A stretch of DNA of 64,000 nucleotides, taken from NCBI GenBank assembly GCA_964035545.1, contig OZ037766.1, forward strand, positions 17,757,081 to 17,821,080, read 5' to 3'. Origin of the DNA: Bugula neritina (lineage: Eukaryota; Animalia; Bryozoa). The notes below the pieces were generated by a model that worked only from the letters and a program-made list of their open reading frames with translations, did no database searches and was not told where the DNA came from. Positions 39,135-63,199 of the stretch are shown piece by piece. A program made the position numbers and the translations under genes. Positions within the stretch are counted from its first letter, which is position 1. Every line of letters starts with the position of its first letter.

Positions 39135-42100
39135 ATGCATACTTCCACGATTTGTTTTTCTGTCGCTATTTTGTGGATAGGAGGTAAGTTCTTTCAAATT
39201 AATGTTCAAATTGTTATCAATTTTAGAAAGACATACTTTTTGTGTTTTTGATTTTCTATGTCAATAGGTTTTTGACCAGCAACCAAAATTTATAGATTTC
39301 CATCGCATTAATAAACAAGTTCACACATAATTCTATAAAACTATTGTAATGCACTTTTCATTGATTAGTAATGGTAATTGAAAAAAGATCTAGTATAAAT
39401 TGCATAATTGTACGTTTTATTATTTTGATAAATAATGTAAAAAAGTAGGCTTCTGCACATTGATAATAAGAATTTTACAGTTTTGCTTTAAGCAAAAAAC
39501 CAGTTTTAACCGAGAGACTCATTTAGCCAATAAGATCTTATGTGATATTTAGGATTTTTCAGAGTTTCTCATTTTGAAATAAATACTTAGCATATTACGA
39601 GCTCATATCAATGCATGTCCACTATTGCAATTAACAAAAATGTTTAGCTCTACTGTATGCAACATATTTTATAGTATATGCAACTTTAAGGTGAGTTACC
39701 AGAAAAGGTATAATTCAAAGGTAAAACTTGCAGCTGTGTTTAAAAGGTTTTGTTAGTGCTTTGAGCATCTTTCAATAAGTTTTGATAATATAGATGAAGT
39801 ATCATGTTGTAGGAAGCTGGGCAGTCAGTATTTATGACTGTGATTTTGAAACCAGTTTTTGCAACTGGACACCACACAGCTCATATTGGAATTTTGAGTG
39901 GAAACGAAGACAAGGGGGTACGCCATCACGTGCAACTGGACCTGCAACAGATGCTTCAGGCCAACAAGCTGGTAAATTTTGTTTTCAAAAGCTGAGTATT
40001 GCAGTTAAAACATTTATATCACACTGTATGTCTGTAATTGTGCATATACCAAAGTTCTACCAAACGCTTTCTGATCATTGCAAAATTTATAAAATGCAAA
40101 ATCTAGCTATTAAGTTTTTCTTATTGCCCTTAAATATTTTGTTTCTCAATCTATATTTTCTCGCTGGAATTTAGGCTGACTGAACTTATATCATCATTTA
40201 TGTTGTTTTCAGATTCATTTCTTTTTTATTTCCTAAACATCTATAAAATTATATTCTTATGCCATATTAATTTTTGATCAGCTACAGTATTGAACATCTT
40301 AACTTTGTCTATTTATGCATATTCTGTAGGTCATTTCGTCAATGTGGCCATTTTAAAGGAGAAGACCGAGGCAAAAATGTCACTAACTTCTCCATCAATG
40401 GCTAGTTCAACAGTGAGCTCTAATTGCCAGCTTCATTTCTCCTATAGCATTTTTACAGGATATCCAAGTGCGTATTAAAATTGAAAATGATATTGTGATG
40501 TAACCCAATTTTGCAGTTTAGCTTAATAAATAACAGGATTGTGATGTAAATTGAAATGAATTAAATGTCTTGCAATAGAAGCTCTCACTAGCTATAAGCA
40601 TTAGTGATTGCATAAGTGCTTAGCATGTCTAAATGTATTTTCCAGGAAGTGTGTATAGATTACAAATATAATGTATAGTTGTAGTATCCTGAGAATATAC
40701 ACCGCACTGTTACCAGTATAATTATAAATAAACTTGCAATATTAATTTACTCTAGAGATATTATTATAGCTAAAAAACAAAAATACATAACCGAAATGTT
40801 GTACTTGAAAAAATTTGCAGTATATTATTTAATACAAATAGCTGTTATTTAAGCTAACTGCTAGTGCTTGGTAATTAATCTTTTTTACACATTTCTTTTG
40901 CTACCTCAGTTGTTGTACCATAATAAAATAAGAAAACAATTGCTGAAAGGCAAATATCTTTTTTGAATACAGGGTTTTGCATTAATCAGAAGGGAGACTC
41001 AATATGTCAACGGTTGAACACACCTCAAAACCGAGCTACCATGTGTGTTCCTGGTCATCAGTTTTACCAATACATGAAGACGAACTGCGCTAAAGTTTGT
41101 AGCATCCAATGCTGTAAGTGTTGCTATAATTTATATAAGTATTTTCAAACATCTTAATTGTTGTAAAATCAGAATAATTATGGTAGTCTCAGTACAAATT
41201 TTTATTTAAAGTAATTATTTCAACTACTTTTTTCCACAAATTTAGTATACTTTCTATAATGAGCACAATAAAATGATTGCATTTGAAATAGCTGTGTCAT
41301 TGTATGTCACATGCAAAACATTTCATGAGGGAAACATGTGACATCATTGTTATAATTCTTAATCATGATGTAATTCTGTATATAGCATGGTTTAGGCAAT
41401 GGGTCTGAGGTAAACATGCAGACAAAATTTTAAATGCAAAAAGAAAAATTTGCTTATGTAACCATGGTTACTATGTTACAAAGGTTATTGTCTCAAGAAA
41501 TTGCAATATTTAATTGGAAGCAATATTTCAATATTTTATCAGCAATCAAAAGTGTTTTAAATTGGCCAAAAATTGTCAAAAAATTGTAACCTACATTATT
41601 CAAAATTAAAATATTTGTTATTTCTATAAATTTGAAAGAAAAAATGGTGGAGGATGTTTAGATGGACAAAATATAATTGCAATACCACCCCCCCCCCCTC
41701 TTTCTTCTGCTTACCAAAAAAAGATAATCTTTTTCAGCATGTCAGTTGAGTTGTGATGCAGAGTAATGTATGGAATACTAAAATTGTATATATAAGATTA
41801 GTGAAAGTGTAAAAGTACAAGTATAAAGCAGTTTTAAAATAATCCAAGTGCTGGAATTGAACATGATATATATTTATAAATAATAAACAACTTTAATAGG
41901 TCTTTGAACTTCGGTATGTGTATTTTTTATTCAACTACCTCAAAGTCACAATGATACTATCTAACCAATGAGTTGGTCTAATGAGAGCAAGTTGAAAGCA
42001 TACAATGAAAGTCTGAAAGATGATTTTTTACTTATATGTTTAAACTTTAAATGCTAGGTTATGAAATTATACTTTATCTTATCATATATGTTTCCAGCTA

Positions 42101-45100
42101 AGTTAAAGGTCAAGGTTGATGGGCCCAAAGGCAGAGAGGAGTTTGCCATCAATGTTGTCAACAGTCAAACATGGACTGATGAAATAGTCACAATTCCTGA
42201 CAAGTATACAGGGCAGAGTATGGAGGTAAGTGTAATTGCTAGCAGCTTAATGGTTGCCCTATATTTTCAATCTTTAGATACCTTCATTTCTGAATGCAGT
42301 TGAGATTAGATAATTCAAATTTTAATTTTGATTTTCCTGAGTTGTAATTACAATTTAAAAAACAAATAAGATAGTTTGATAGTTATACTTATGTTATATA
42401 TTTTAAAATATGCAAGCTGCGCTCATTTTTATTTACTCTGTTTTTATTGATACCTAGTAACACAAAATGCAACAATTAATTAATTAATGGTAATTTGCAC
42501 TTTCAAGCTTATCATAATGGTACAAATTGCATGGTCGAGCCTTATGGTCAGCGTGTTTGATGGAGACAACAAAAGTTTAATCCACCATGAAATAATTTGG
42601 CTTCAGATTAACTGCAGGATAATGTTTGACAAAAATATTATTTTATAAAAACATTAAATCTGTCTATGTTGCAGAAATTCGATTATATAACTTTATAGTT
42701 TAATCTTTTTTAGATCACTATAGAGGCCCTCACTAGCTGGGATATATACTCGTATATTGCTGTAGATAACATCTACTTCACTGGCTGTAGTGAGTGCATA
42801 CAAAAATTATAGCTATAACTAAATGAAAGAACAAGTAATATAGTAACACAATTTATGCGGTTTAATTTGTAGTGAGACTTTGTAACATAATTTGAAAACT
42901 ATTGAGAGAGCTCTTCTTTGATCGCTATTTTAATAACTTTGATAACTTTGCTTTTTTTTGTCAGAGTTAGAAAATGTTCACATGACTCGAAAGTTTGTCA
43001 GCCATATCCAAATATAAACAAGAGTGCATGAGTAGAAGATTGAAAAAAATTGCCTTTTTCAGAGAGCAGCATTAGCAATTTTTACTTATGTGCTTGAATC
43101 ATTTTTATTTAGGTTTCTTTATAAAATGGTTTAATAAGTTTTTATACATCTACATTTCAAGAGTATTACCAAAATTAAACGTATATTAAATATAATTATT
43201 CTAATTCTTGATTAATTCTAGGGTTTTTAAGTGGAGTTTAGTAGCTGCTGAACTTTGCCTATTGACCCAAACATTGTTAACTTATAGGTTTACAATTAGG
43301 TATAACTTGAAAACTAAGTAAATTGTAAAGCGTGGATGTATGTAAATAAAGCCTAGTGACGCAGGATAAAACTGGGGAGATTCAGTGAGCTGAGTTAACT
43401 ACACTCAAACCTAAGGCATTTCATCCTTGCTGCACTCATTGTTTTTTGTTATTACAGCTATAATTATAATTTTTATAGCTGGTCTTTAATTGGCAAAAGT
43501 TTTCTTATTAAGTTATGCTATCATAATTACATTTTTAAGTTAAGGAGTACTTACTGTGTAAAAATTACTTTCATTAAAAAGCAATCTCAAGCAATATCTA
43601 ATAATAAATAAAAGTGAGCATTAAGGTGAATTGCTGTGTTTCTGACGAAAACACTGAGATTTTAGCTGGCACACATTTTTAAAAGAAACTGGTGACATTA
43701 ATTAAAATTTGCATTAATCACTAGGTTTTTAGCACCGGTAGACTCTGTCTAAGCACACAGTTAGTGAAGAAGTATTAAACAGAATTGCTTGTAAGCATGA
43801 AGTGTTATGGTGAAGGCTGAAATTGAACACAGAATTTTCTTAATAAAAATTAATCTGCTAAAAATATAAGAACTTTAATTTGAGTCTCTTTATTAACTGT
43901 CCTCTGTTTTTGTGTGATTTGTTTTATAACGCCCATTGAGCAGCTTTAAGTCTTGAACTACCAATTAATAAAACACAAGTTTCTGAACACAGTGATTAAA
44001 TGAACAAGTTCATGCATGAACTGCTTGCAGCATAATTTATATCTGTAATCTGCAAAAATCTGCAATATTAGCATATATTTCTTATTTGTGAATTTGTGGA
44101 AGTTAATTATAACACATTTATAACCTCTTTTATTTTCAAACACATCTAATCTAAATTACTATATGTTTTTAGATTTTCCAGATCCTAGTCAAACTACAAC
44201 TACACAGCCAACCACAACCCTGGCACTAACAACATCTACTGCAACACTAACCACAACTTCATCTACAGTTCCATTGAGTTTTATCAAACCAGGTAAAACT
44301 ACGTTATTTAAAAGTGCACAGCATAAATTAAAGTGATAATTGCAAATTTGCCTATTTCAGTAAGAGAATTTCGTGCGTAATGCGTAAATAAAGAATAGGC
44401 AGTCTATTCAAGTAATACTTACTATCATAGCTACTGTGTTTCAGTTTTTTAAATCAATATTGAATAGTAAATGAAGTGAGTCTTGAGCGGCATTTGTGGT
44501 AATTTAATTTCTGTTAAATTTTTGAAGTTAAGGGTTCAATTTTTTTCAAGTATAGTTCACTAGACCGTCCCATAAACTTTTCTCATTTATCTATAACTTT
44601 CTGAATTATTTGGCTAGTCAAACTTGTGTAGAGCACAGTGTATAACATAGTCACAATACTTCAAATATATTACATACTTTTTTGAATGGTCAATTGTCAA
44701 AGAAAAATAGTTTTAATAGCAAAAGTTAATTGAAAGGGAGCATGGGACATGACGTTGCCATTCATTGACTACTCTGTTTTCTGTTTCAGTATTCCGTGCA
44801 TAAATACTTGACTCAAATTTTTCCTACCTTGGATCTTTGGCCTAAAACAAAAAATAGTTTTTTTTTACAGATATGTATGATTGCGACTTTGAGCAGGGCT
44901 CTCTCTGTGGTTGGACAAGCCATTCATACTATTGGGACTGGGTTATTGGTAGCCAAGGAAGTTTAGCATTAGGAACTGGACCCTCTGTTGATGCTTCTGG
45001 TTCATCATCTGGTAAAACTTTCAACTCACTTAAATACTGCAGTACTGCGCACCACGTATAGATACTGCCTGAAATATAAATATTATTGGTATTTGGTATT

Positions 45101-48100
45101 TTAGGAAGTTTTGCTTTCATGTCTGTTACACAAAGAGGGAAAACAGAGCAAGCCACTCTCACATCTCCAATAATAAACCAGTTCACTTCCAGTTCAAATT
45201 GTCACCTTACCTTTAAGTACAGTACTTATTCTCCTACTTTCTGTAAGTCTACCATAACTTCGTTTCGGCATATGTAAAAATTGTAGTTTACCACTCAAAG
45301 GTGTTTCAAGAGCAAAATACTTTAGAGCGTGCACTATATAATCTCAAAAACCTAATTATTTGCGTTTAATGATATATCTGGAATTTTACTGCATAACCAT
45401 GACTATACCTATTTATATACTGATTAGCCTAATGCACCAGAGAAATATAAAGCGGATTAAGTTTTTAGCTTATATTTGCCTTATTTGCTATTTATCAATT
45501 CCAGATGCACATTTTACATTAAAAACTGATTTTAGAATAAAAAGCTTTATACTATATAATTGTTTCTCTATATTCATATTCAACGGATGCACGTTTGTTT
45601 AGTGAATTGCAAGAATGATCAGGGTGATTCAGCATGTAAAGCGTGGGAACAGACTCGAGAGACTACCTGTGTAAATTTTGCAAGTTACATGAAAAGAAAC
45701 TGCGCCAAAGTGTGTGGCTTTAATTGCCGTAAGTAGTACAACTTAATGGAAACCCCTTACATTAGAATAGTTTAGATTAATAATTACATTAAAAAAATTC
45801 TACTTTTGTTGCTAGCACAGATATTTCAAATATTTTAAGACTTGATTATCTAGTTGCAAATAGTTGTCATAGATGTAAAATAGGTAGCATAATTTTAGTC
45901 TAAATGTGCTGTCCACAACAATGCAAAACAGTATGTAGTCTTGTTTTAGATCATGACTTAAAATTCCTGAAACCGGTTTCATAGTACCTTTTATAATACT
46001 GAACAAATGTTATATTGTAACCATGAACAATTTGAAAATAGAAAGAAAACTTAAATGACATGGCAGAAAATTTTATAAAAAGCTTAAATTTGTTGATAGA
46101 TTACTTTAATACAGATTTACAAATTCTATAAAAATATTTCATCAAATGTGCCTCATTATAACCAATTTTTATAATAGTAACACACTAATAATGAAATAAA
46201 TTTCTAATATTCAAAATATGCATTAGCTTGCTATCAGCTACATGCAGTTATATTACTCAAAATTATTTTTAAATTATAGAAAATTTTAAAGTGTATGTAA
46301 CAAGTGACCTGCACAATCTTGGTAAACATGAGTTTCATGTGCCAGCACCAGGTGATGACAAATGGTACCCTGCTGATATCGATATAAGCATTTACACTCA
46401 AAAAGATTTTCAGGTATATTCACTATGTCTATGGCAGTTGCACATATCATACAAACTGTTATTTTTGTGTTCAGTCTACTTTTATGTATAAAAGCTTAGC
46501 ATAACACGACCATTACCTAATGTTTAAGATATCACATAATATATATGCATATGTAAACAACAAATAACTTTAGTTAATGGATGACATACTGCAAACTGAT
46601 TTTCTCACTTTTTAATATAACCCTTTACAAATAACTTTTTTAAACCTTTTGCCTTTTTGTTTAGTAAAATACACATCACAGTAAATAGCATTATTTTAAT
46701 TATATTCAGTTTCAAATTTTCTAAAGCCTATTAAAAATGTTATTGGTACCCAGTAAAACAACTAAAATTATGGAAGGCCAAATATTCAGAAATTCCCTCT
46801 ATCATTAAATCTCAAATGCTCACAATAAAGTATCTAGCCGTTATTTTTCTCATATGTTCGAAACATGCATTCATAAGTCTATAATTTTCTCTTAAGTCTA
46901 GAACTTGGTCTCATACTGTTATTATTCATTCCCATGCCCTCTTCTATGCTCATTGTTCAGTCTTGTAACTCGATTATGTCATCTCAGTACTCATATCATT
47001 TGCTCTGTTATAATCATTATTTACTATCCTATGGCTATTATAACCTCTCATACCCGTATTACAGTACTTGCTCTCACAGGCATTATTAATTCCCTTACCG
47101 TTATTCTGAAGCACCAGCATAATTAATTAATTAATAGTTAGTTAATTAATAGTAATATATCACCTATAATTAATGGTCCTTCCTTTATTTCAGTTAATAC
47201 CTAGTATATACTTCCTCACAAACCATAAAAAAATTTTATAAAGAGTTTTGCTATATACAGCAATTAGTAGTGTTGGGTCTACACAACTCTTTGTCATTTG
47301 ATAAATTCAAACTGACTGATTTAACAGATATGGCTTATCAAATTCAGTGACAATAAGAGACATTATTAAAAAGAAAATTTTTGTATTTTACAGCTTGTGC
47401 TACCTGCTACCAATGAGTTTACGGGATGCAATTTGCAATATGAACTGATAACTGCTGCCTGATTTAGGACTGCTATTATAGGCAGTTAAAAACTATGCAA
47501 AAGCAATTGTTTAATAAAGAATTATTTACTTGCAACCAAAAATAACTCTGGGATAAGCAAAGCACATCATTTTCAACTGTAGACTTACTGTATTATAAAT
47601 GGTCATGAGGAAGATCTAATTAGACAACCTCCAAATGTAGTCCAAATATTTTGAAGGTAAATGTTGCTTTGCTTGAGTAGAGCTGCAAATTGGGTACTTA
47701 TAGTTGGATAGTTTTAAAAGTTTATTAGATTATACTTCATTATCTTTAACAAAATTCACCAAGTAAAAACAGTAGTTTTCAAAAAGTGACTCAAACTGGC
47801 TAAAATGTACAAGATTAAAATTAGGATACTAATTTAGCTGCCACAATTCTGGTACAACCTGCATGCTTATTCACTCTCTTGATAAATGAAGAATAGCTAA
47901 CTAAACAGAGGCATACAACCAACAAATTGATATTAAAATTATTAATAAAAACTATTATACAATGAAGCAGAGCTTAGCCTATTTATCAGTAGCTAGTAAA
48001 CCTATAGACTGGTACATACTGAAATAATGCGACGTGCACACAAATACTGGTGCTTCAGAATAGGGGTACAAGAGCAAGTACTATAATAAGGGCATGGGAA

Positions 48101-51100
48101 GTTATAATAGCCATAAGTCATAGGGTAGTAAATAATGACTCTAAAAAAGCAAATAATAAAGGTATAAGAAAAAAGAATAGAGGTATGTGACTAAATAATG
48201 AGCATGGAAGAGAAAGAAATAAGGGTATGATAATTAACAATAACAGCGTGAGACTAAATAATATACATCAGAGTATGAATGATGTGAGTATGAGAGCAAA
48301 TTATAGACCTATGAAAGAATTTTGTGAGCATATGAATAGGAATAACAGCTAGATATTTTATCGTGAGCATATGAAATACAATAATGAGTAAATTTTTCAC
48401 CATTTGGCATTCTACATAAAGTAGTGTGTAATAACTATTTTTGTATAAAAAAGTACTAGTAACAAAAGATAAGCAGGGGAGAGTGGAGCTAGTTGAGCTA
48501 CAAAGCTATTTGAACCATATGCTTTAAACTTTTTCCTTTAAATCGTTGCACAATTTTACCTCCTTTATTTAAAAGCGCTTTAGGTGAATTACCAAACATA
48601 TGGAAATATATGGAATCAACGTAAAAGTTTTTAGGTGAGTGAGTGTTTTTTACACTTGTTGCGCATAAAATGAGCAAACTAAAATTTCAATTTTTTGTAA
48701 AAAACTGCATAGCTTCTCAAATTTCAATAGCACGATCAAATAAAGTCAGCTGCGCATTTTAAACATAATTTTAAAGCTGAGCAATATGACCTAAAATTGC
48801 AAAAATATCTCATCCAAAATAGATATTGGCTAGAATCTGTAGTGTGACAGTGTGGGGCTAGTAGACTCGCATTGGAAGTGCGGCAAGTTTAACTAGGTAC
48901 AACTTGCCTAACTAATTATTTTCACAATGTTCATTATACTTGTGCAGTTTGACTTCTACATTTAAGTTGATATTTTTCTTTATTACTTTTTTTCTGTCAT
49001 CAATATTTAAATCCAAAGATGCATTTAACATTAGAACAAATGAAAACGTAGGCCAACAGTGTATTTAAACTATTCTGCAAATTTTCTTAGAATGGTGCAA
49101 AATTACATACAGGAAACAAACAAGAGAACAGATAAAGAAAGCATAACTACTGTAATGAATATGGTAAAGCAGTGATGTAAATTATCTGCCATTGTTGAGA
49201 ATTCTCAGGCAGCCCTTTTAAGAAGTTGGTTATGCTCAACAATACCATGTATTTTCTGATGTCGTATGAAAGGATCCACTTCATATCTGCAAAGCTTGTT
49301 TAAATATAAATTACAAAAGACAACTTTCAAAAGCATTCTTACCAGTTTGCTGCTACTGCTTGGCTTTTAAATATTCTTCTGCATCGGCGATCTTTGAGAA
49401 GTTAAATGAGTGTTATTATAGTTTTATGCAGTAAAACTACTAAATTGCTGGTTATGCCTATGTTGTAAAGCTAGAACATACTTTTTGCACGTTTAAGAAA
49501 GAGAACTGGAATTGTAATCCGCGAGAGAATAAACTATATTTACTCTACTTTACAATTACAATTACATCGGGATAAAAGTCAATAACAATTATACAAGCTA
49601 TACATTAGTAATCACATTAGTGACCCTACTTGGCAAGTGTCACTGGGCGTACAAAATGTTTTGCTTTTAAAGAAGAGCTTTATGCTAATTGGCCCTTTAG
49701 GTTTCAGATCGCAGCATAGGCTGCAAAGTGCTTTCACAGCATTTCAGAGTGCTGTCGAGGCTTTAGGAAATTGCCATAATATAAATTGTCCACAATACAA
49801 TGCTGCTTAATGACTAACTCGTGGACTAGGTTTAAAGTAGGATGTGGGGAAGGGGGGTAGCACGACATGTCTCATAGCCATCACATGAAGTCATTTGTTT
49901 ATGCCATTTCAGTTTTTATGTTTTTTATTGGTAATCTTTAATAACTGTTTTTCAGCTTGAAAAACAGTTAAAACATTTTTGACACTGGTTCAACTTGCTC
50001 ATTGGGGGGGGGGGGAGAAATTCATTGTACCAACAAAGTTACGGGCAACAATTTGGCTATCTTAATGAGTGAAGCTTTTATGCATTTTGTTTGAAAAAAA
50101 CAGCAATATGTGACCATCTTTCAAAACCTATGTGTTAAAAAGTGCAATTTTTGGTTCAACTAGAGCTCCATCATCACCTATATTATTTTTTAAAAATATA
50201 ATGAAAATAAAAACACATGCCATTATTAAAATTTTATGTGGTGAGTGTAGCTTGACACTATTTCTATATACAGGTGGTATTTGAAGGAATTAGCGGATTA
50301 GACATACACTCATATATTGCTGTTGATAACATAAGGTTTGTCGGGTGTGGTAAGTATACTGCTCTTTTCTCTTAGAATGAGAGTATTTATAACTTTTTTA
50401 TTTTATTACCTTCTAATTATAAAAGTGATTTCCCTACATTTCTTTACTTTTGCACTTTTCAAGTCTATGTAAAATTAAAGACAGTAACATGAACATCTTG
50501 CTAAGTATTAACTACCTGGTGTCAACGGCATACAATCTGCTATAAAAATTATAAAACCAGTAACAGGATCAACGAAATTGTTTAGGTTGCACAAGAAAGT
50601 TTACTCATTAGTCTAGGAGCAATCTCCAAAAAGGGCCCCTTTTTATCATTGTAGTTAACTGTGATTGGGCAGGACCTCTACCACATAGTAGGGTCCAACA
50701 AACTTGGGATGAGTTTTAGCCGACTGTCTGCGATGCCTACAATGACTGACCATCTAAACCCAGTCCCCTACTAAAGGGTGGGGGGTTCCTTAGAGTTTTC
50801 TGCCCACACCTTCTACTGATTTTCTTGTAGAATTTCATGAGTCATTTGTATTCCGTTGATCAGTTTCTTTACGTACTCATGTACAAGGGCCTCGTAGGCC
50901 GGAACATTGTATACCAGGTGCTCTGGAAGCCAGGTCTGGAAGCCAAGTCTCGAAGCCGAGCATCAGGAGGTTCGGGGTCTCTTGAGTAATGAAGTGCGGT
51001 GTGCTGTAGTATGCCCACATGATTTGTGGCAGCACCCATTCTATTCCTCCTGACCCTGTCTAGGAGAAGGCTTCTCAGGGCATCACCCAACAATCTGTTG

Positions 51101-54100
51101 TTTCACTTCACGACTCCATTCTCTTGCAGGTCATATAGGGTTGTCCAACTCTGACTCACTCCCCATATCCGGCCTAGGTCATTCATTAGCTTAAACTAAA
51201 ACTGGGCACCCTGGTCTATATAGATTTGCTCTGGTAGCCTGAAAAAAAACATACATTGGTTCAGGACATGAACCACCGTGGGAACTGACGCGTCTAGAAC
51301 AGCCAGGACATCTGCGCTCTGGATGAGGTGGTCCGTGATCACTAGAATGTAGGTGTTCCTTCTAGCAGATAACGGCATAGGTCTGAATACGTCCACCACT
51401 ACTATTATTTGTCATGGCTGACTAGCGCCAATTAGTTGTTTGCGTTTGACGGCCATGCTTACTAGCCTGGCAGACCTTGCACTACCGTATCTGCAATCAC
51501 ACATCCCTAGTCAGTCCAGGCCAATACTACCGCAGCTGCAGACATCTGGTTGCCAAACTGGCTCTAGAATGGGCCTGCTTATGAATGTCTCAGATCAACT
51601 CTTCTCTGAAAGCAATTTTACAGACCACCTGCTTCCTCTCTTGGTGTCAGCTGGCAGTGATATGATCAACAGGCATTTCTCGTTGATCCTGAGGGAATCC
51701 TAGCAGCGAAAGAAATACTGGAACTCAGCGTCTTCCTGTTACTGCTGCTTTTTGTTTGGTTATCTTTCATCCTTCTTGACCTGGAAACTGTCTGCTACCG
51801 CGCGCCGCACAAGATGGATAAGGGCAACTTCTCAGGTATAACTGCCTTGCTGAGGCCACATTATTAGTATATAAGAATTCAGTCTCGCCAAATAAAGTCT
51901 CACCTAATTGTGTTAGAATAAAATTTTAAAAACTCTGTTGCAGATCTTGCTTTTCCTATTGAGTAAATTTTTTTAGAATTTTCAATATTGATTTTTTTTA
52001 AAAGTTATAGACAAAAAAATGCCTATTTTTGGCCAATTTTGTCAGAAAAGTTGATTTTTAGTTCCCACCAAGTATCTCAACAGGAAAGCATGGTATAAAA
52101 AAAGCGCTGTTGGAATCCTGACAAATTTCTGCAGAGTAAATATTTCTATTTTTCCAATAGATTTAATAGATTTTCTATAAACTTCTAATTTATACACTAA
52201 AAATGTGATGTTTTTTTTGTAAATAATCAATATTGCGTAGCACTTCGCACTTCAGTAAACACATAGAGATGAGAAGATACTGATGCACATATTACTAATT
52301 ACAGGCTTGCTAGTTGACAGGCTAGTGAATAGCTTGGTGTCTACTTTGTTTATGAAGCACCCGTAATAGAATGTTGATAGATGGTACAGCCTAAATTGAG
52401 ATTGCTGTTTATTGGTTGTAGTTTAATCTTGGGCTAAACAATCGTGAGCAAGCAACGCACATGCCACCCAAAGAACAATGCTATAGCCGGGTCATTGCGC
52501 TTCAACTCAACAAATAGCCTATGCCTTTGTGTCTCAGATTTTGTTCGTATTTACACCAGTTAGCCCGAAACATGTCTTGAGTACTATGGTTGAATATTTT
52601 TGGCCTGGCACGAAAAAGTTTTGAGAAATGATTATTTCCGTGAGCAAAGGTTGGGAAAAATTTGCAAGAAGATTTTTGATTTTTACTTTTAGACCAATCT
52701 ATAAATGTCTATATCTCAATCACTTTTTTAGACTGAGCCTTAAAATTTGCTGTGTGATTTTATAACATTCATCAATTTGCACTAGTAATAACACATACTA
52801 CAAAATTTTGTGTGTGCACGTATGCTAAGTCTTTGAATATTGACAATTTTTTGTAAATTTTAAAATTTTTGAATATTCGCCACATCATAAAAGGCATTTA
52901 TTTTTATTTTACTTTCATAAATTTTTATCCATAAATACTTGATTATAATGGCTTTATACTACTCAGTTTGTGTAATTTTAAAAATAATATTTTTTGAGAT
53001 ATAGACACTCAAAGTGAAGAAAATGTGAAAATTTGCCCAACTTGACAAAGATGTAACCCATTGTTTGAATACAGTAAAATCTTTTAAACAAGCATTTTCT
53101 GTAAGGTTATTTAGTTTATTTTGTAGATTCATAAATTTGAACATCCTTATATTGTCCAAACTTAACAAATATCACATGGGAAAATGGTATGCGTACAAAA
53201 ATCGACAAATTGCAATTTTTCAATATATGTTGAGATCATACATTTTTTATCATTCATATTGGTCAAAATATCAAGTAGATACATATATATATTATTCTTA
53301 TATATGTCAAATCTACTGAAAGTTACAATGAAATCTTATTTGTGTGTAATATTGGAAAGAAAATCTGCCGATTGGCATTACATGATATTCCCATTAAGTT
53401 TCAGCTAGCAATTGTTATTTCCGTGAGTGAATAGTGTGAAACAGCTGAAATCTTGATAAAATCAAGTTCATTAAGTAGCTGAGGCAAGGGTGGCTTCCAA
53501 ACCATACTCAAATATAACACCATGGCCCTGAACACAATAGGCCAAATTTGGTCGATGAGGGGGGTTAATGCATGCTGGAAACAATTGTAGCTTTTGAAAC
53601 AGATCGTGTCTAAATATAGCAGAATGGTTCTAGCCTCACCTTAATTAGGTCAGTAATTTGCCCTGAGCCTAGTATAATATTCATTATCTTGAAAAAACCT
53701 ATACAACTTTTTCTTTTAAATGTAGAGATAATGGTCTTCCAACTTTAGCATCTGGTTCATAAAGGATTCCCTTTGAAATTTTCTGGCTTGCTGGGCTAGG
53801 AAATTGTTTGCCCCAAACTCTGTGGCTGTTCTATTCATGGTCCAGCTTTCCATGCTAATGTCAATAACTGAACCTTCTCTATTCGCAAGGAAACTTTCAC
53901 ATCCTTATTAAAGGAACATAATAATTTGTTCAAATCTTCATTATTACTAGGCTTTATACAGGCATTTGTTGCTTCTGGGTAGAGTTCATCTTTATTTATA
54001 CCCAAGACTGTGTCCACCTTCTCAGTAATGACCTCCTTCACTTTCTTCAGTTTTCTTTTACCAGAGCTCACTTTATTGGATGAGCTGATTTTTGCAGCTT

Positions 54101-57100
54101 TCAAAAAAACTCCCAATCCTATCATTCCACTGTTCAGTGTCTGTGCTTCCTTCTCAACTTGAAGAAATGCATCCCTTTCAGGTTCCTAAAAGTATCCTGA
54201 GAGCTCAGCTTTTTTAAAGCAATTAATTATGCACAGTTTCTCTCAGTTTCTACGATTCAAAGGAGTAAAATTATACCAAAAGAGGCCCAAAAGTCAGCCC
54301 ATCTAGTAAAGTAAACTATATGGAAAAAAACGGATTCAAGTGGAGGAGGCCATTACCAAGAAAGTTGCTACAGTAGAAAGTATAGAGGGAGAGGCACTCC
54401 ACCTGGAAGCAACAAATGCTTGTATAAAGCCTAATAATCAAAGATTTGAACATATTAATATGTTTCTTGAATAAGAAGGTGAAAGTTTTTTTGGGACAAA
54501 AGAAAGTCTAGTTACTGACATTGGCATCAGAAAGCTGGACCATTCATAAGACATTCGCAGAATTTGGAATAAACAATTACCTTGCATGACAAGCCAGAAG
54601 ACTGCAGAAGGATTTTTGTCTGAATCAGATACTAAAATTGGAAGACCATTGTTTTCAGTTATGAAAAAGAGAGTTGCAAGTTTTTTCAGGATGATGAACA
54701 TTAGACATGGCATGGGGCCAATTACTTGATTATTTAACCAGTACTGACCAAATTAAGGTGAGGTGAAAACCATTCTGCTATATTTAAGCACATCTATTTC
54801 AAAAGCCACAATTATTTTCGGGGTGTATTAAACACAGCCCCCCCCCTCATCAAATTAATTAGGCCTATTGTGTTCAGGGCCATAGTGTTATATTATTTGG
54901 GTATGTTTTTGAAGCTGCTCTTGTCTCAGCTACTCAATGTACTAGCTTGATTTTATCAAGATTTTAGCTGTTTCACACCATTCACTCACACAAATAACAA
55001 TTGCTACCTGAAACTTAATGGGAGTATCAAATAATGCCAAACGGCAGAACTTTTTTCCAATATTACACACAAATCAGATTTCATTGTACTAACTTTTAGT
55101 AGATTTGACATAAATTTGTATATAGGAAGCATATATGTATCTACTTGATATTTTGACCAATATGAATAATAAAAAATGTGTGATCCCAACATATTACATT
55201 GAAAAATTGCATTTTGTCGATTTTCGTACGAATACCATTTTTCCGTGCAATTTACGTTAAGTTTGGACAATATAAGGACCTTTAAACTTATGAATCTACA
55301 AAATATACACTAAATAAACTTACAGAAAATGTTTGTTTGAAAGATTTTATTGTATTCAGACTTTGGATTACACCTTTGTGAAATTGAGCAAATTTTCACA
55401 TTTTCTTTACTTTGGGTGTCTATATCTCGGAAAATATTATTTTCAAAATTACACAAACTGACTAGTATAAAGTCACTATAATCAACTATTTATGGATAAA
55501 AATGTGTAGAAGTAAAAAAAAATAAATGTCTTATGATGTGGCGGATATTCGAAATTTTTCAAAATTTACAAAAATTTGTCAATATTAAATGGCTTAGCAT
55601 ATATGCACGCAAAAAATTCTGTAGTATGTGTTACTACTAGTGAAAATTAATAGGTGTTATCAAACCACACAGCTAATTCTATGGTTCATTCTAGAAAAAT
55701 GATTGAGATATGAACATTTATAAATTGGTCTAAAAGAAAAAATCACAAATTTTCCTCAAAGTTTTTCTCAACCTTTGTTTACGGAAGTAGTCATTTCTCA
55801 AAAAACTTTTGTGTCAGGCCAGAAATATACCCAAAGAATAGTACTCAGGACATGCGTAGGTCCATTTGGTGTAAATATGACTAAAATCTGAAATGAACAG
55901 GCGTGGGACTTTCTGAAATTTGGTTGATTTGACACGGAATGACCCAGAAAAAACTTGAACTACATTGTGAGCTAAATTTATGATATTCTTAGTGAGAAAG
56001 CATTTAACTATCTTGTGTGGGTTGCGTCTCTTGGAGTCGGCAGAGCTTCCTGACATTCTGGTACACACTGGGGCTAATACGGAGGGCGTTGACAGCATCT
56101 GATTAGGTTTCAGACAGCAGATGGTCATGCCCCCAGGCTATGATTGCTGGCGTCTGTGTCCAAAATGTACTCCTTGGCTGAATCTGAATATGCCAAGATG
56201 GGCGCTTCTACCAGCCAGTCCTTGAGGTGGTCGAATGCCTGCTGCTCCTCCTGTGCTTACTGCTACCTGACTTACCCCTTTGTGGCTAGTTGATTTAATA
56301 GCTGTGCCACACCTGAAAACTTGGATATGTACTGCCTGTAGTACTCTACCGCAGCTCATAGAGGTCTTGGGAGCAGTCCACTCTTCTACAGCCTGTACTT
56401 TTTCTGGATCTGTTGCAACACCATCTCAGATACTTGATCTTCTGTTGTAAGAGTGCACACTAAAAAGTTTCAACTTCAGTCCTGCTGCCTGGAGGTAGTC
56501 AAAGACCTTCCCCAGATGACTGACACTAGACGCAAAGTCTGGGGAGATGTAAAATACACCGTCAAAAAATGAACAGTGTATTCCAGTGTAGCCCACTGAG
56601 GGCCTGATCTATGAGTCGTTAGAAAGTTGCTGAGGCAGACGTTAGTCCAGATGGCAGTACTTTCCTCTTCCGGAGACTATCACGGGTAATGAATGCTGCT
56701 TTATCCTGGGCATCAAAACTGAGGGATACTTGCCATTTCCAATTGAAGTACTTGCATCCTGCGAGAACATTCAGTGACTTGTCTATCCGAGGGAGGGGTA
56801 TGCATCTTTGATGATAACACTGTTGAGCTTTTGGCAGTCTATGCAGAACTTACAACTACCATCTGTCTTCTTGACCAAAACTACTGGTGAGCTTCACGCA
56901 CAGTGGGCTGGCTTAATTAGGTCCCAGTTAGGAAGGTCTTGCACTTGCCAGATAACCTTTTTCTTTTTCTCCGGGCGTAGTCATTGGTTAGGGTGCTGAT
57001 AAAGATGGTATCGGACGCCAGAAGCAACTTGTGGCAAACGGCTTTTGTCAGCCTTATGTCATTGTCTCTGCAACTGAATACATCACCCCATTTTAAGAGT

Positions 57101-60014
57101 AGTTGAGCCAGTTTCTATCGTTTTCAATTACCTCCACAGCTTCTACAGACACCCTGGTACAGGTCAGCCACATGTTTTAGAACACCTCCCGTCTAGTTTG
57201 AGGATGTCTCCAGTGCTGCAGTCCCACATCTTCTTATTTGATAGAATGGTAGTTACCCATCAACACACCAGTGGGCAGCTTGAGGGGCTTTATGAATGGG
57301 GTTGATACATTGCACAAAGAGTTCCCCCTACAATCTAGCCGGTTTTGGCTGTTTGCCAAACATATATATAATAAACTAGTTTTAATCATTTTAAAATATG
57401 TTACTGGTATAGACAAACGCTAGATGATACAACTTTTAATTTATTTCCAAAGGTTGAAGAGGTTTTGTGGCTAACTGGGTAAACAGAACAATCTAGAGTT
57501 TTTACAGAAAGCGATTATCTGTAGAAAATTTTATGTGCATATATATCAAATAAATTAGCTTTAACAATTCTAAGATATTTAATCAACTTAGACAAAAGTT
57601 AAAAAAAAGCAGCTTATATTTTTTTCCAAATTTGAAGAGCCTTTGTGGCTAACTGGGTGCACAACACAATGTAGAGTTTTTACAGATTAATTAGGACCGT
57701 TAAAACTTCCAATTTATAAAGCAATCGTGCGGCCTACCCTCAGAATGTAATGAGTGAAAGATAACTGGAGGTTGCTTCTACACTGCAACTTAAACTTTAC
57801 AATCAAAAATTTTGCGATAGATGACCTGAAAAGAATATACTCAGTGTTGACAAACAATCATGCATACCCATCGATATTCACATGACAATCAAGTGACAAT
57901 ATAGTAACTAATTACTGTACTAGAATCGCTGTATTCTTTTGCCCCCATTCTTTTATTTATGTTTTCTGTAATACAAACCATTGTGCTGTTTCTTTTATTC
58001 AAAGAAATATTTCATTAACAATTAATTAAACCAGTTAATCAGTTTGCAGCACTAACGTACTTCATAGTTAATACTTTACACAATGGCCATACATGCAACA
58101 CTATAAAAATATGTTGTACTATTTTACAGCTATAAGCCTAGGGCCACATTGTGCGTATTTTCGCAAGCGAAAATTGAAATCACAAGTAGCAAAGGTGTCC
58201 ACTGTGCGCGTTGAGAAAACCTTCGCACTCGTCTCTCTGCATTCTCAACGCAAGTGCGAATCGTCTCTGTCGTCGTCACCTAATCGGCTGGTAGTTATTC
58301 AGCGAGCCCAATTTCTTTATTTTAGTGCTACATTCCAGTAAATTGCGTTTTATTGAAAGCGAGTGCGATTTAAAAATGAAAGCTTTATTTATCACGCATC
58401 ACTGACGCTACAGTGGACGCCTTTGCTACTTGTGGTTTCAATTTTCGCATGCGAAAATACGCGCCGTGTGGCCCTAGGCTAAACCTTAATATAGTGGACA
58501 TACACTGCATTATTACACGTTTTTCCTTGCAGATCTGAAAATAACAACAGCACAGCCTACAGAAACATCAACTGCTAGGCTGGAGTCATCTATTACAACT
58601 ACTACAAGCGAACCTACAACAACAGCCATTATACCATCCCTCACTGCATACTTGGGAACTACCAGCCAAAATACATTTGCTATTACAAACAATAAGAGTC
58701 TTACAACCATGCTACAAAACAGTGCAGTAGCAAAGACATCGCAATTATCCAGCAAACACCCTAAAGCAGGCTTCCTGGTTTCCAGGTAATTTATTTTGAC
58801 CTAAATGTTAATGTTTATTTATTCGATTTTGGAACAATATTAGACTGCAACTTGGATAATTTTTTGTGTACAAAAACGCACCTATGCAATAAAAGCAAAG
58901 AATTTTATTATGATACCTGATCACAGATTTATTTAAATTATAAATTCATCTTTTAGTTTAGAAAACGTCTGTTAAGGCAAACTGCTGAATATGTAAAATA
59001 GGCTCAAATCTAACGAGCTAACAAGTTAATAAAAGTTGCAACAACCAACCTCAGTCATTTTTTTTCAGAAAAGCTACATATGTACCCAATTACTATAATT
59101 GATCAGGAATGCATCTTTGTAAATTTATTATAGCCACAACAAGCAAATCTAAAAGTGTTACTGATGCAAGACTGTATTTAAAAACATATGAAAAGAACGA
59201 TGAAAACATAATCACCTTCAATAATACATAGATACTCACGCAAACATCAATTGGTATCAAGCTGCACTTTTAGTCATGCCTACTTGTAAAATCGCATAAA
59301 AAGTTAGAAAAGTAATTTTAACTGTTTTCGGTAGGCAGAATAAAGCTATTTTACATATAGCCCTCAGATTAAAAACACCCAACAATTAAACGGACCACTA
59401 GGCCTTAACAACAGATACAAGTAAAAAAAAATATTTCTAATAATGTAGTACACAATAAAATAATTAGTGGGCTAACAAATTAACTGCTAAAATTGCTACT
59501 AGTAAAAAGTTGTATCGTTTTGATGTCGTGCTATTAGTTTTACTATATATTTGATAATTTTAGTTTTATATTCTATGTTCTATAAAACCTCTATAAAAAT
59601 TATCTAAGTTTTTATGATGGCTCAATTCTAAAGTGTGGATAAAAGAATGCTATGGTAATTAAAGCTGGTATTTGATTAAAAACAATCTAAAACTAAATGT
59701 TTCTTACTTTATAGAACAGGGTTATAATTTGCATTACTAACATTAATCTTTGCTTGGTTATGAAGAGTATACCAACAGTGACCTGGTTAAATTCCATGAT
59801 TTACAGAGATGATGAAAAAAAGTCTACAGAAGGTATGAATGTGATGGGATTGGGAATTGGAGTTGCTGCAGCAGTTATTGTAGTAGTTATTGCTGTTGCT
59901 GCTATTGTGTACCATGTAAAAAGACAAAAAAATCGAGAGAAGAGTATGCCAAATTTCGACAGGCGACGATCAACTGTCTCTCCAACCCCAGTAACAGAAG
60001 CATGGAAAAATTAA
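39135..60014 (+). CDS. Type I membrane protein, about 628 aa: signal peptide - MAM[ShKT insert] - Thr-rich linker - MAM[ShKT insert] - Ser/Thr stalk - TM - short tail; exons 39135-39183, 39813-39971, 40330-40467, 40973-41113, 42098-42225, 42714-42789, 44173-44292, 44871-45011, 45105-45242, 45603-45728, 46280-46413, 50274-50349, 58533-58785, 59807-60014
   Basis: Two MAM motif sets (CDFE...C.W; TGP..DASG; LTSP...C.L.F.Y; IAVDNI.F.GC), hydrophobic start MHTSTICFSVAILWIGG, TM segment GLGIGVAAAVIVVVIAVAAIVY followed by KRQK. Fourteen GT-AG exons join in frame (1887 nt). Confidence 0.88.
40973..41113 (+). CDS. ShKT-like six-cysteine exon 1, inside MAM repeat 1 (phase 1-1)
   Basis: FCINQKGDSICQRLNTPQNRATMCVPGHQFYQYMKTNCAKVCSIQC; spacing C-x8-C-x12-C-x13-C-x3-C-x3-C; tacag acceptor and gtaagt donor. 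Confidence 0.82.
45603..45728 (+). CDS. ShKT-like six-cysteine exon 2, inside MAM repeat 2 (phase 1-1)
   Basis: NCKNDQGDSACKAWEQTRETTCVNFASYMKRNCAKVCGFNC; spacing C-x8-C-x10-C-x10-C-x3-C-x3-C; tttag acceptor and gtaagt donor. Not present in the ORF track. Confidence 0.82.
46790..48410. repeat. Diverged inverted repeat pair (about 46790-47120 / 48045-48410) in MAM-gene intron 11
   Basis: ttatttactatcctatggctattataac..agtacttgctct..tattctgaagcaccag vs ctggtgcttcagaata..agagcaagtact..gttataatagccata..tagtaaataatga. Confidence 0.7.
48476..50178 (+). mobile_element. pogo-like family deletion derivative (same family as 30936-33983) with an internal insert
   Basis: Starts aggggagagtggagctagttgag and ends ggttcaactagagctccatcatcacc; homologous in reverse to about 32740-33983. 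Confidence 0.65.
50600..51860 (-). mobile_element. Degenerate Ty3/Gypsy retrotransposon, integrase portion
   Basis: VDVFRPMPLSARRNTYILVITDH...LPEQIYIDQGAQF (integrase core) and HPKFVGPYYVVE (GPY/F motif), with many disablements. Confidence 0.88.
52489..55945. mobile_element. 3.4-kb imperfect palindrome of two divergent DNA-transposon 3' halves (GGGTCATT termini; Sola-like, tentative) nested in the Gypsy element
   Basis: gggtcatt at 52489 and aatgaccc ending at 55945; arms about 52489-53985 vs 54400-55945. Both arms carry a decayed EKVQLLTLA...FFQDDE transposase-like reading pointing outward. Confidence 0.7.
56000..57330 (-). mobile_element. Degenerate Ty3/Gypsy retrotransposon, RT/RNase H portion
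   Basis: [41 protein letters not shown] and GVATDPEKVQAVEEWTAPK; same strand as, and upstream of, the integrase part. Confidence 0.9.
58136..58479. mobile_element. PIF/Harbinger (Tourist-like) MITE, TAA TSD, about 70-bp TIRs
   Basis: TAA|gcctagggccac...gtggccctaggc|TAA; TIRs have few mismatches; CpG-rich relative to the flanks. Confidence 0.88.
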
Positions 60015-61024: not shown

Positions 61025-62604
61025 ATAGTCATAGCGTGAGTTTTTTTAAAAAACAGCAGATGTAAAATTGCTCAAATTATTATGTGTATAATAATGAGCA
61101 ATTATATTATTAAAGAAAAGAGCAATTTAATTATATGTTTTATTGCGCTACTAATAGTTTCACGCCTCTTCGGCACTCCTCAGGCACAATATTGGTGGAT
61201 TTAAATTTTTACTTTAAAAAAATCAACATGCTAAACATAACGTAAAACGTAATGCAAACACAGCAGTGGTTTTGTTGTTATATAGGTTTGTAAGTGTAAT
61301 TAAATATATAAAATAAACACATAATGTAAAAACACAATTTATAGCAGATGCATGAAGTTGTTGTTGAGTGATTATACTTTATAGGTATTTGGATATTATT
61401 TACTATAGTACATAAAATATAAATGGGCTACAGAGTTTCTAGGTTTTGTGGTTGCGCAGTAAAAATTTTTTTGAGTGTTGGCAGGTTGATAAAAGTTCGT
61501 TTCGCTTGTTTAAAGTACACATGTTGGGTTTGTATAAAATAAAAAAACATTCCCATAGGCATAAATTACACCTTTTGGTAATTGTGTTGTATGGTTTAGC
61601 TTTCTTTAATATTTTACAACCTAAATTATGTTTAATGTTTTTGTTAGTTAGTTGCCAAATGTATTTGCTAAGTTCTGTTTGATTTGCTTTTTCCTTGTTT
61701 TTGAATGATGATTTGTGGCTTGCGTATCTTATAAGTTTGAACGGTCCTTCACTTAGGCCAATGTGTGTTGCAGGTGCGTTTTCGGTGGTTTCTACAGTTG
61801 CTTAGTATATTACCCTGCTCTCCTGACAGTTTCCTTTCAGTGGACAATTTTCTTTTTTTCTGCAGTTGCAGTTTTTTCTGGGGGTTTTGTTTTGTTGCTT
61901 TTGTTTCTCTAAAATTATGTTATTGTGGGCATTTATGGTCTGTTTTATGTTTGGCATGCAGCTGTAGCTAACTTTTATATTGTTGTTGTTGATTGGGTGT
62001 TGTTTCAGAAATTCCTCAATCATGATTTTAAAGAAGTCTTTTGCAAATTTTGTGGTTACATGTTGGCTGTATGGTGGATTGTACCAAACAACTTTTCTTT
62101 TTTGGTTTCGGGATTTCTGTTGTGTGTTGTCTGTTTGTGTTCTTGGTAGGAATTGTAGTTGGTGTTTATAGCTACTTTGGTTTAGGAGGTTTTGGTGGTT
62201 GTAGGTGGATTGTGTGAAAATCGTCTCATTAGATGATATTTACAACAGTCGTTTGTTAACAGACAAGGGTAGGTTGGAGATTATGCTTGGTGGGTGGTTG
62301 GATTTGCTATGAGTATATTTAGTAGAACTGTTTGGCTTAGTGTATATGGTGTGTAGGTTTTGTTGTTTAGGTTGAGCGTGGTGTCTAAGAAGTTGATAAT
62401 TTCTTTATTTGCTTCGATTGTTATTTTTATTCCATTTTTATAAAATATTTTGCAGACATCCTTTTTTATGTTCTCTATTTTTTTTGGTGTTTTGGCGGAG
62501 ACTCCTAAGGCTTTATCCCTGTACAGGCCGAAGCTTTTGCCATGCTTTTGTGTTATTAGGTTTAAAATGTACGCCCCAACTAGCTCGCATGTTTCAGCCC
62601 CGTA

Positions 62605-62672
<68 letters not shown>

Positions 62673-62737
62673 AAGTCATAGCGCTAGTTTTAAAAAAAAC
62701 AGCAGATAAAAAAGTGCTCAAATTATTATGTGTATAA
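61025..62737 (-). mobile_element. Penelope-like (Naiad-type) retroelement, 5'-truncated, partial tandem split by (TA)n at 62607-62663
   Basis: RT fragment [14 protein letters not shown]...[13 protein letters not shown], linker NCNCRKKENCPLKGNC, GIY-YIG VIY...IGLSEGPFK, CNLCLWE, stop at 61439-61441. The same 3' tail occurs at 61025, 62671 and 37415, each abutting (TA)n. Confidence 0.9.
61141..61191 (-). ncRNA. Minimal type I hammerhead ribozyme with intact catalytic core
   Basis: Reverse complement tattgtgc-CTGAGGA-gtgcc(gaaga)ggcgt-GAAA-ctattag-TA-gcgcaata: CUGANGA and GAAA boxes, stems I and II, very short stem III, GUA cleavage triplet. Confidence 0.78.
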
Positions 62738-63199
62738 GGGTTGAAGAATAAATTATTTAAGAATATGATGACATGTAATGCAACTAGAATTATTTTTATT
62801 ATCTACATTTTTCCACTGTAACGAAATGTTTATGTTTCCTGGTTTTTACCTATTTATTCTGCATATTTTTTACACGTACTTACCACGGTAAATATTATAG
62901 TTATCCCACTTGACGCATTACTTATGGCTATTTTTTAAATACTGTGGTTATAGCTAAGTTTATGTTGTGCAACTTTTTTATCGTAAACACTATAGCTATT
63001 GTTAAGCTTTTAGAGTAGTCAATAGTTTATCCCTTTCCCATCTTTACAAATTACAATGTTGTGCACTTGTTTTGGTTCAGTTTTGCTGATGTAAGATAAG
63101 GTCCATTTCGAGCTTCAGGCACCTGAAGACTGGAGCTCAGACTGAAGAGGATCAAGTAAAGCAATAAAGAATTACACTACCAACACTCGATCATAGATA

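Follow-up and report, generated by a model that had tools for sequence, protein, structure and literature searches.

Does a cell-surface protein of Bugula neritina carry a toxin-type, cysteine-rich module inside each of its two MAM domains rather than beside them, and what might such a module do there? The question is raised by a gene on the forward strand of the 64,000-nucleotide genomic stretch analysed here (hereafter the window), in which a first-pass annotation, made from the letters alone, had noticed exons with six cysteines that resemble ShK toxin (ShKT) domains and seem to be grafted into a loop of either MAM domain.

Gene structure, splicing and surroundings

The gene (39135-60014, +) comprises 14 exons (E1-E14), which join into an open frame of 628 amino acids with no internal stop, and its 13 introns all have GT-AG ends. 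The encoded order is a signal peptide, a first MAM unit (E2-E6), a Thr-rich linker, a second MAM unit (E8-E12), a stalk, a helix and a tail. E1 (39135-39183) supplies the start codon and the predicted signal peptide, with hydrophobic windows at residues 5-24. In the first unit, E2 (39813-39971) encodes the N-terminal part of the MAM domain with Cys26 and Cys33 and matches Pfam MAM below the cut-off (E=3.5e-05); E3 (40330-40467) continues through the strand of the third cysteine (Cys102), its profile match reaching to about position 90, and ends at the insertion loop; E4 (40973-41113) is the 141-nt exon of insert 1; E5 (42098-42225) takes up the MAM domain past the insert; and E6 (42714-42789) encodes the C-terminal strands with Cys230, these last two exons being covered by the MAM profile. 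E7 (44173-44292) is the Thr-rich linker by composition, with 50% Ser+Thr. The second unit consists of E8 (44871-45011), the N-terminal part with Cys275 and Cys283 (Pfam MAM E=7.1e-05); E9 (45105-45242), which runs as far as the insertion loop and holds Cys350 (Pfam MAM E=0.0089); E10 (45603-45728), the 126-nt exon of insert 2 (Pfam ShK E=0.0032); E11 (46280-46413), which continues past the insert; and E12 (50274-50349), the C-terminal strands with Cys475, the latter two again within the MAM profile.

E4 and E10 each encode six cysteines, spaced 8,12,13,3,3 and 8,10,10,3,3 respectively, and are symmetric exons of phase 1-1; both five-exon units have the phase pattern 1-1, 1-1, 1-1, 1-0, 0-1. 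Beyond the insert cysteines each unit has four conserved MAM cysteines, which would pair as two disulfides. The membrane anchor on a mucin stalk that had been claimed for this protein is borne out by the last two exons: E13 (58533-58785) has the Ser/Thr-rich composition of a mucin-like stalk (38% Ser+Thr), and E14 (59807-60014), whose acceptor was set by a joint of the X1 contig, encodes a candidate transmembrane helix at about residues 572-595 (hydropathy peak 3.0 in a 19-residue window), a short, basic tail of about 35 residues and the stop codon. The gene product is hence predicted to be a single-pass, type I membrane protein.

A contig of 1,961 nt from sequencing run X1 (depth 64.7, about 97% alike) extends from E1 beyond the stop codon and joins all 13 introns, including those of E3-E4-E5 and E9-E10-E11, so that the proposed 14-exon structure holds at every junction with both six-cysteine exons spliced in; this evidence is one contig from one run, which is RNA-Seq by its library label only, a guess of the index. 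Run X2 covers the genomic stretch: its main contigs have no differences from it, and among the joints listed for this run are none of those of the first five introns. In the window's allele, a transcript that skips E10 would meet a stop codon at the new junction, and insert 2 is therefore obligatory there; the 8 X1 joints of one listing include no E10-skipping joint. Skipping of E4 stays in frame and could occur, as 23 joints lie outside the listing that gave the first five introns and contigs drop rare forms.

Several repeats and neighbouring genes were also observed. Intron 12 holds a long inverted repeat of about 3.2 kb (52594-55828), with nine arm pairs that are 72-95% complementary, and broken retrotransposon-like fragments on the reverse strand (51196-51408 and about 56100-57100), among them a weak match to the rve integrase (E=0.0021); the rest, which have no Pfam match, bear what we take to be a Gypsy-like look. 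Just 5' of E13 lies a short element (58135-58480) with 71-nt inverted ends (92%), whose bin has an extreme summed X1 depth and which is probably a high-copy miniature transposon. Open frames at 61442-62802 (-) have no Pfam match at E 0.01 and resemble a Penelope-type retroelement, and a calreticulin gene at 8700-10600 (-) has its closest match at 98%, with named animals at 87% or less among the best 120 matches listed. The calreticulin is of animal type; in a quick tree of 55 of those sequences the 98% match grouped with a single other sequence, outside any named group.

Nesting within the MAM domains and the nature of the insert

Both units were compared with a MAM profile of 166 positions, for which three database proteins supplied 25 repeats. 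Once its insert is taken out, each unit yields a single match that is ungapped at the junction (profile positions 2-155 and 2-154 of 166; 72.8 and 86.1 bits), whereas with the insert left in it breaks into two half matches. This comparison and the presence of both flanking peptide strings that the first-pass annotation had quoted uphold its central claim: the six-cysteine inserts are nested inside both MAM sequences. As there is no gap where the two halves meet and the four cysteines of each unit are retained, the MAM sandwich would still be expected to fold. None of the 30 database MAM repeats that cover the span has a comparable insert; 9-31 residues occupy this span of 21 positions, and in the MDGA1-like and enteropeptidase-like repeats the equivalent stretch is a few residues separating two strand motifs. 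Nor was a database protein found that carries the spliced MAM-plus-insert domain. Domain scans do report the broken matches that had been predicted: not one of the 13 exons scanned against Pfam (E1 is too short for the scan) reaches a curated cut-off, and the units fall apart when the inserts are left in. HMMER can align the second half of the insert with the MAM Cys-strand. We rejected an origin of the insert by internal duplication of MAM sequence, as the two inserts of a second locus (L001, described below) reach 0.7 and -0.8 bits when compared with that MAM profile.

The five inserts available each have six cysteines in about 35-45 residues and share 11 invariant positions, namely the six cysteines, the motif N-x-x-G-D and, following the fourth cysteine, A-K, the loops being variable. 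ShK is the sole Pfam family matched by four of the five, always below its cut-off of 20.9 bits: E10 scores 18.4, P0001 (a near-identical single-exon call) 16.1 and the two L001 inserts 14.5 and 13.6, and E4 has no match. These scores bear in both directions on the idea that the inserts are a different six-cysteine module, similar to ShKT only in the last helix and the cysteine pattern, which we regard as quite unlikely. It is favoured by the fact that all five fall short of the cut-off, and it has to contend with ShK being the one family that comes up at all. With a profile of our own, made from six database ShK domains, E10 reached 30.1 bits and E4 19.1, values attained by none of 500 Cys-fixed shuffles for either insert, which again speaks against a different module; the alignment of E4 is confined to its last 20 residues, as such a module would have it. 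Profile-profile comparison with the six ShK domains gave probabilities of 97% and 96%, and 78% with P0008 alone, further counting against it; the former support is not fully independent, since the six domains had been picked by their likeness to the inserts. On the side of a different module are also the recognition values in the Atlas, which lie under the Atlas threshold even though ShK-bearing clusters were found there at 0.89-0.92, and the search of solved sequences with the five-insert profile, in which no ShK entry came up; E10 itself and the profile of the two window inserts likewise found none there, and once database ShK proteins were mixed into the profile, 2k72 was matched at no better than E=0.061. 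Two AlphaFold runs on E10 gave two helices with pLDDT 46.1 and 49.1, too low for use; for these low-confidence models Foldseek returned no match and VIA a best Z of 3.1 and 3.6, on unrelated helices. Of the ShKT identity first proposed, the resemblance thus stands and a score above the Pfam cut-off does not, and we call the inserts ShKT-like, with family membership unproven.

Searches for other nested proteins that started from the inserts gave no further case. A profile of the two window inserts, run against 1.84 billion representatives, had 8 matches, none with a MAM domain: P0001, three proteins with several ShK domains each and four repetitive ones, which were discarded as noise. This two-sequence profile of 46 positions missed the L001 inserts too, and distant nested relatives could escape it likewise. 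Longer proteins were sought by a word search with E10, which produced no candidate, and the insert alignment yielded no confirmed locus among 468 pattern matches in metagenome contigs.

An orthologous locus and the history of the layout

Metagenome searches with E2 and E8 confirmed three loci among 185 pattern matches. Two of them, L002 and L003, are multi-MAM genes of the ordinary kind and give no insert match; a protein search with the same two exons had 3 matches among 251 candidates, all of them ordinary multi-MAM proteins. The third, L001, has a GC content of 43% compared to about 31% in the window and contains counterparts of E1-E11 in 447 codons with no stop; its contig stops after E11, the stalk and anchor lying beyond its end, and its splicing is deduced from the sequence. 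All 11 exon phases agree with those of the window, the inserts measure 141 and 126 nt, exactly as in the window, and identity is 29-56% per exon, the inserts being at 48% and 37%. The first L001 unit gives a whole MAM match only without its insert (78.5 bits, profile 2-155). In both cases a gene for a DUF4614 protein lies upstream of the MAM gene (26170-28800, +, in the window; 500-2810 in L001), at a distance of about 10 kb in the window and about 1 kb in L001. As the same neighbour occupies the same side, L001 is taken as the syntenic orthologue, and on these sequence features the nested layout is conserved in it across a deep species split. In L001, skipping of insert 1 would produce an extra Cys codon at the 4925/5657 junction, and skipping of insert 2 would produce a Ser codon; the stop that E10 skipping creates in the window is absent from L001.

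E4 and E10 are 54% identical to each other, the MAM exons of unit 1 and unit 2 28-56%, and between window and L001 the cross-unit identities are about equal to the same-unit ones. These relationships suggest that a phase 1-1 exon was probably inserted once and that the five-exon unit was then duplicated, both before the window and L001 lineages split; in the simplest history the duplication would have occurred shortly before the split, or saturation would have blurred the identities since. Two independent grafts were rejected, given that the inserts agree in position, phase and sequence. As no uninserted orthologue was found, the insertion itself is deduced from the ordinary MAM repeats. The proposed route has a precedent, in that ShK domains in Nematostella trypsins are encoded by single exons and readily gained (10.1101/645952). 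Against it weighs the finding that insertion into introns, although a real route, accounts for less than 10% of domain gains in animals (PMC2926785).

The window and the X1 contig differ at 40 listed coding positions in 39 codons, 25 with replacement and 14 silent changes, which gives a pN/pS of 0.56 for this one sequence pair, with differences near exon ends left out. This value lies above 0.15 (p=5e-05) and is indistinguishable from neutral (p=0.09); as neutrality is not rejected, relaxed constraint fits the data as well as diversifying selection does. The listed differences include no change of a cysteine and 4 changes in the tail. In the nearby calreticulin gene, 4 of the 188 residues of one exon are different in the closest database match, a sequence that possibly comes from another source. 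As the inserts are about as conserved between window and L001 as the MAM exons, they are not hypervariable overall. Run X2 also has short extra contigs, about 88-91% alike, at 40389-40492, 40959-41100 and 45596-45700 (E3, E4 and E10), and these suggest at least one paralogue, itself putatively insert-bearing.

Candidate functions and comparison with known systems

The first-pass annotation had offered three options for the protein, a channel modulator, a defence or recognition receptor or an adhesion-specificity module, the first of them a toxin-like reading. In ShK the dyad Lys22-Tyr23 is held essential for binding, and the MMP23 domain has Arg-Leu there (PMC6409789). We calibrated this position on alignments in which 2mcr has Lys-Tyr, and 2k72 Arg-Leu, at the sixth and fifth residues ahead of the fourth cysteine. 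At these two places the inserts read Gln-Tyr, Ser-Tyr, Ser-Tyr, Thr-Trp and Asp-Phe: the aromatic residue is retained, and Lys or Arg is lacking in all five, which tells against the channel option. A membrane-tethered blocker or modulator of potassium channels, with the inserts acting like ShK, is accordingly very unlikely in our judgement, and yet two reported facts keep the idea alive: the dyad is described as neither necessary nor sufficient, so that channel activity may exist in its absence (PMC6409789), and anemone toxins engineered into a tethered form do block channels when given a linker of sufficient length, some of them through an Arg (PMC7056315). The ShKT-like sequence of the inserts and the net basic charge of the two in the window (+4 and +2) also agree with a blocker, whereas those of L001 are close to neutral (0 and +1), and an insert would be anchored at either end to a domain of 160 residues instead of sitting on a free linker.

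The reading that we prefer, to which we give about an even chance and which fits best among the three options of the first-pass annotation, is that the protein is a fast-evolving cell-surface receptor for recognition or adhesion, in which the inserts provide a variable binding surface on a mucin stalk. Each MAM domain, interrupted at one and the same point by a ShKT-like exon with six cysteines, would bear a predicted disulfide-stapled knob. ShK has the connectivity C1-C6, C2-C4 and C3-C5 (PMC6409789), and the C1-C6 bond of this fold would hold the two ends of the insert together in a short turn, with the Ser/Thr stalk raising the MAM heads above the cell coat. MAM domains are adhesive and their loops set their function (PMC9848320); a stapled knob placed in one of the turns would accordingly be expected to alter what the head binds. 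With its MAM heads, mucin-like stalk, short tail and fast turnover of sequence, the predicted protein resembles recognition and adhesion receptors such as insect SR-C and zonadhesin. An insect SR-C protein binds a bacterial protein through its MAM domain, and Drosophila SR-CI recognises bacteria (PMC6191154). Given the short and changeable tail, capture or adhesion would be likelier than signalling by the protein itself. Going further, we consider it somewhat unlikely that the gene represents an undescribed, lineage-specific receptor family in which a toxin-type fold set in one MAM turn serves as a knob that picks partners, for instance symbiotic bacteria; the host group of that candidate family is little sampled and probably symbiont-bearing.

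Two other roles for the inserts have to be weighed against recognition. They may be structural or steric, stabilising the MAM heads, masking or changing a face for self-association or toughening a protein of the mucus coat, with no specific outside ligand. This seems unlikely to us, though several observations agree with it: the invariant insert residues look structural, MAM domains drive oligomerisation in meprins (PMC9848320, PMC4460706), insert 2 is obligatory in the window's allele and the pN/pS value fits loose constraint. A purely structural part is harder to reconcile with an insert length kept to the nucleotide over a deep split while the loop sequences change, and with ordinary MAM domains, which fold without one, none of the 30 repeats compared having such an insert. 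The inserts might alternatively be surface-displayed modules for antimicrobial defence or symbiont control, comparable to aurelin, a peptide that is ShK-like and antimicrobial (PMC6409789); the run with the spliced form, X1, is labelled a symbiont metagenome. We see at best a slight chance of this, as the net charge is low, above all in L001, the run label is uninformative on the role of the gene, and no processing site that would release the inserts was identified.

Whichever role applies, the locus provides a clear natural example of an entire disulfide module residing within a MAM domain. The module is spliced in and has persisted through a deep species split, and the locus indicates that one MAM turn tolerates a guest of 42-47 residues. 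For ShKT-like domains, few of which have a known function, it also suggests a role other than that of a toxin, and one that can be tested. Pfam misses the architecture twice over, in host and guest alike, and such nested arrangements would be overlooked because scanners see only broken matches. The weight of the case is limited in that neither domain is rare, exon insertion is a familiar process and the function is predicted only.

The claim that this nesting was undescribed fits the literature searched: a full-text search, whose scope leaves most subscription journals, supplements and the InterPro architectures outside, found no description of a MAM domain with a nested ShKT domain. In the excerpted text of the sources that mention the two, MAM and ShKT appear as domains of proteases or in separate proteins and never nested (PMC9848320, PMC4460706, PMC8083181, PMC6409789, 10.1101/645952). 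Nested extracellular domains that arose by exon insertion are already known, and it is the MAM-ShKT combination for which we found no description. The laminin LF domain within the LE array (PMC5338690) is likewise a module within a module or array, with a different host and guest. Astacins with MAM and ShKT, such as Hydra HMP2 and its relatives, have both domain types in one protein (PMC9848320, PMC8083181, PMC4460706); these are proteases with the extra domains placed after the catalytic domain, and the excerpts describe no nesting, whereas the present protein has a membrane anchor instead, no Pfam match to an astacin protease domain on the 13 scanned exons and no room for one in 628 residues. 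Zonadhesin and zonadhesin-like proteins share N-terminal MAM domains and mucin regions, and fish zonadhesin also a transmembrane helix with a short tail; the excerpted account mentions no insert in their MAM domains (PMC1325057). The VWD and EGF domains of zonadhesin are absent here, with no Pfam match on the same 13 exons. As for the guest, ShK, the MMP23 domain (2k72) and 2mcr share with the inserts the six cysteines, a residue five positions ahead of the fourth cysteine that is aromatic or hydrophobic, and a C-x-K-x-C-like end; the inserts differ in having no Lys or Arg six before the fourth cysteine, in scoring below the Pfam cut-off and in being nested rather than free or in tandem. ShK itself, we assume, has a shorter C2-C3 loop and two residues between the last two cysteines, where the inserts have three.

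The SR-C receptors (dSR-CI, Sf-SR-C and the structure 8yt7) share with the present protein a type I anchor, MAM, a small Cys-rich module and a Ser/Thr stalk, and in SR-C the MAM domain binds a ligand (PMC6191154). The best PDB match of E8 is 8yt7, an SR-C-like MAM domain (E=0.0086). Neither CCP nor somatomedin B domains have a Pfam match on 13 of the 14 exons, and the two units, linker, stalk and helix fill the protein. Where SR-C sets CCP and somatomedin B domains beside a single MAM domain, the Bugula protein has two MAM domains with a ShKT-like insert inside each.
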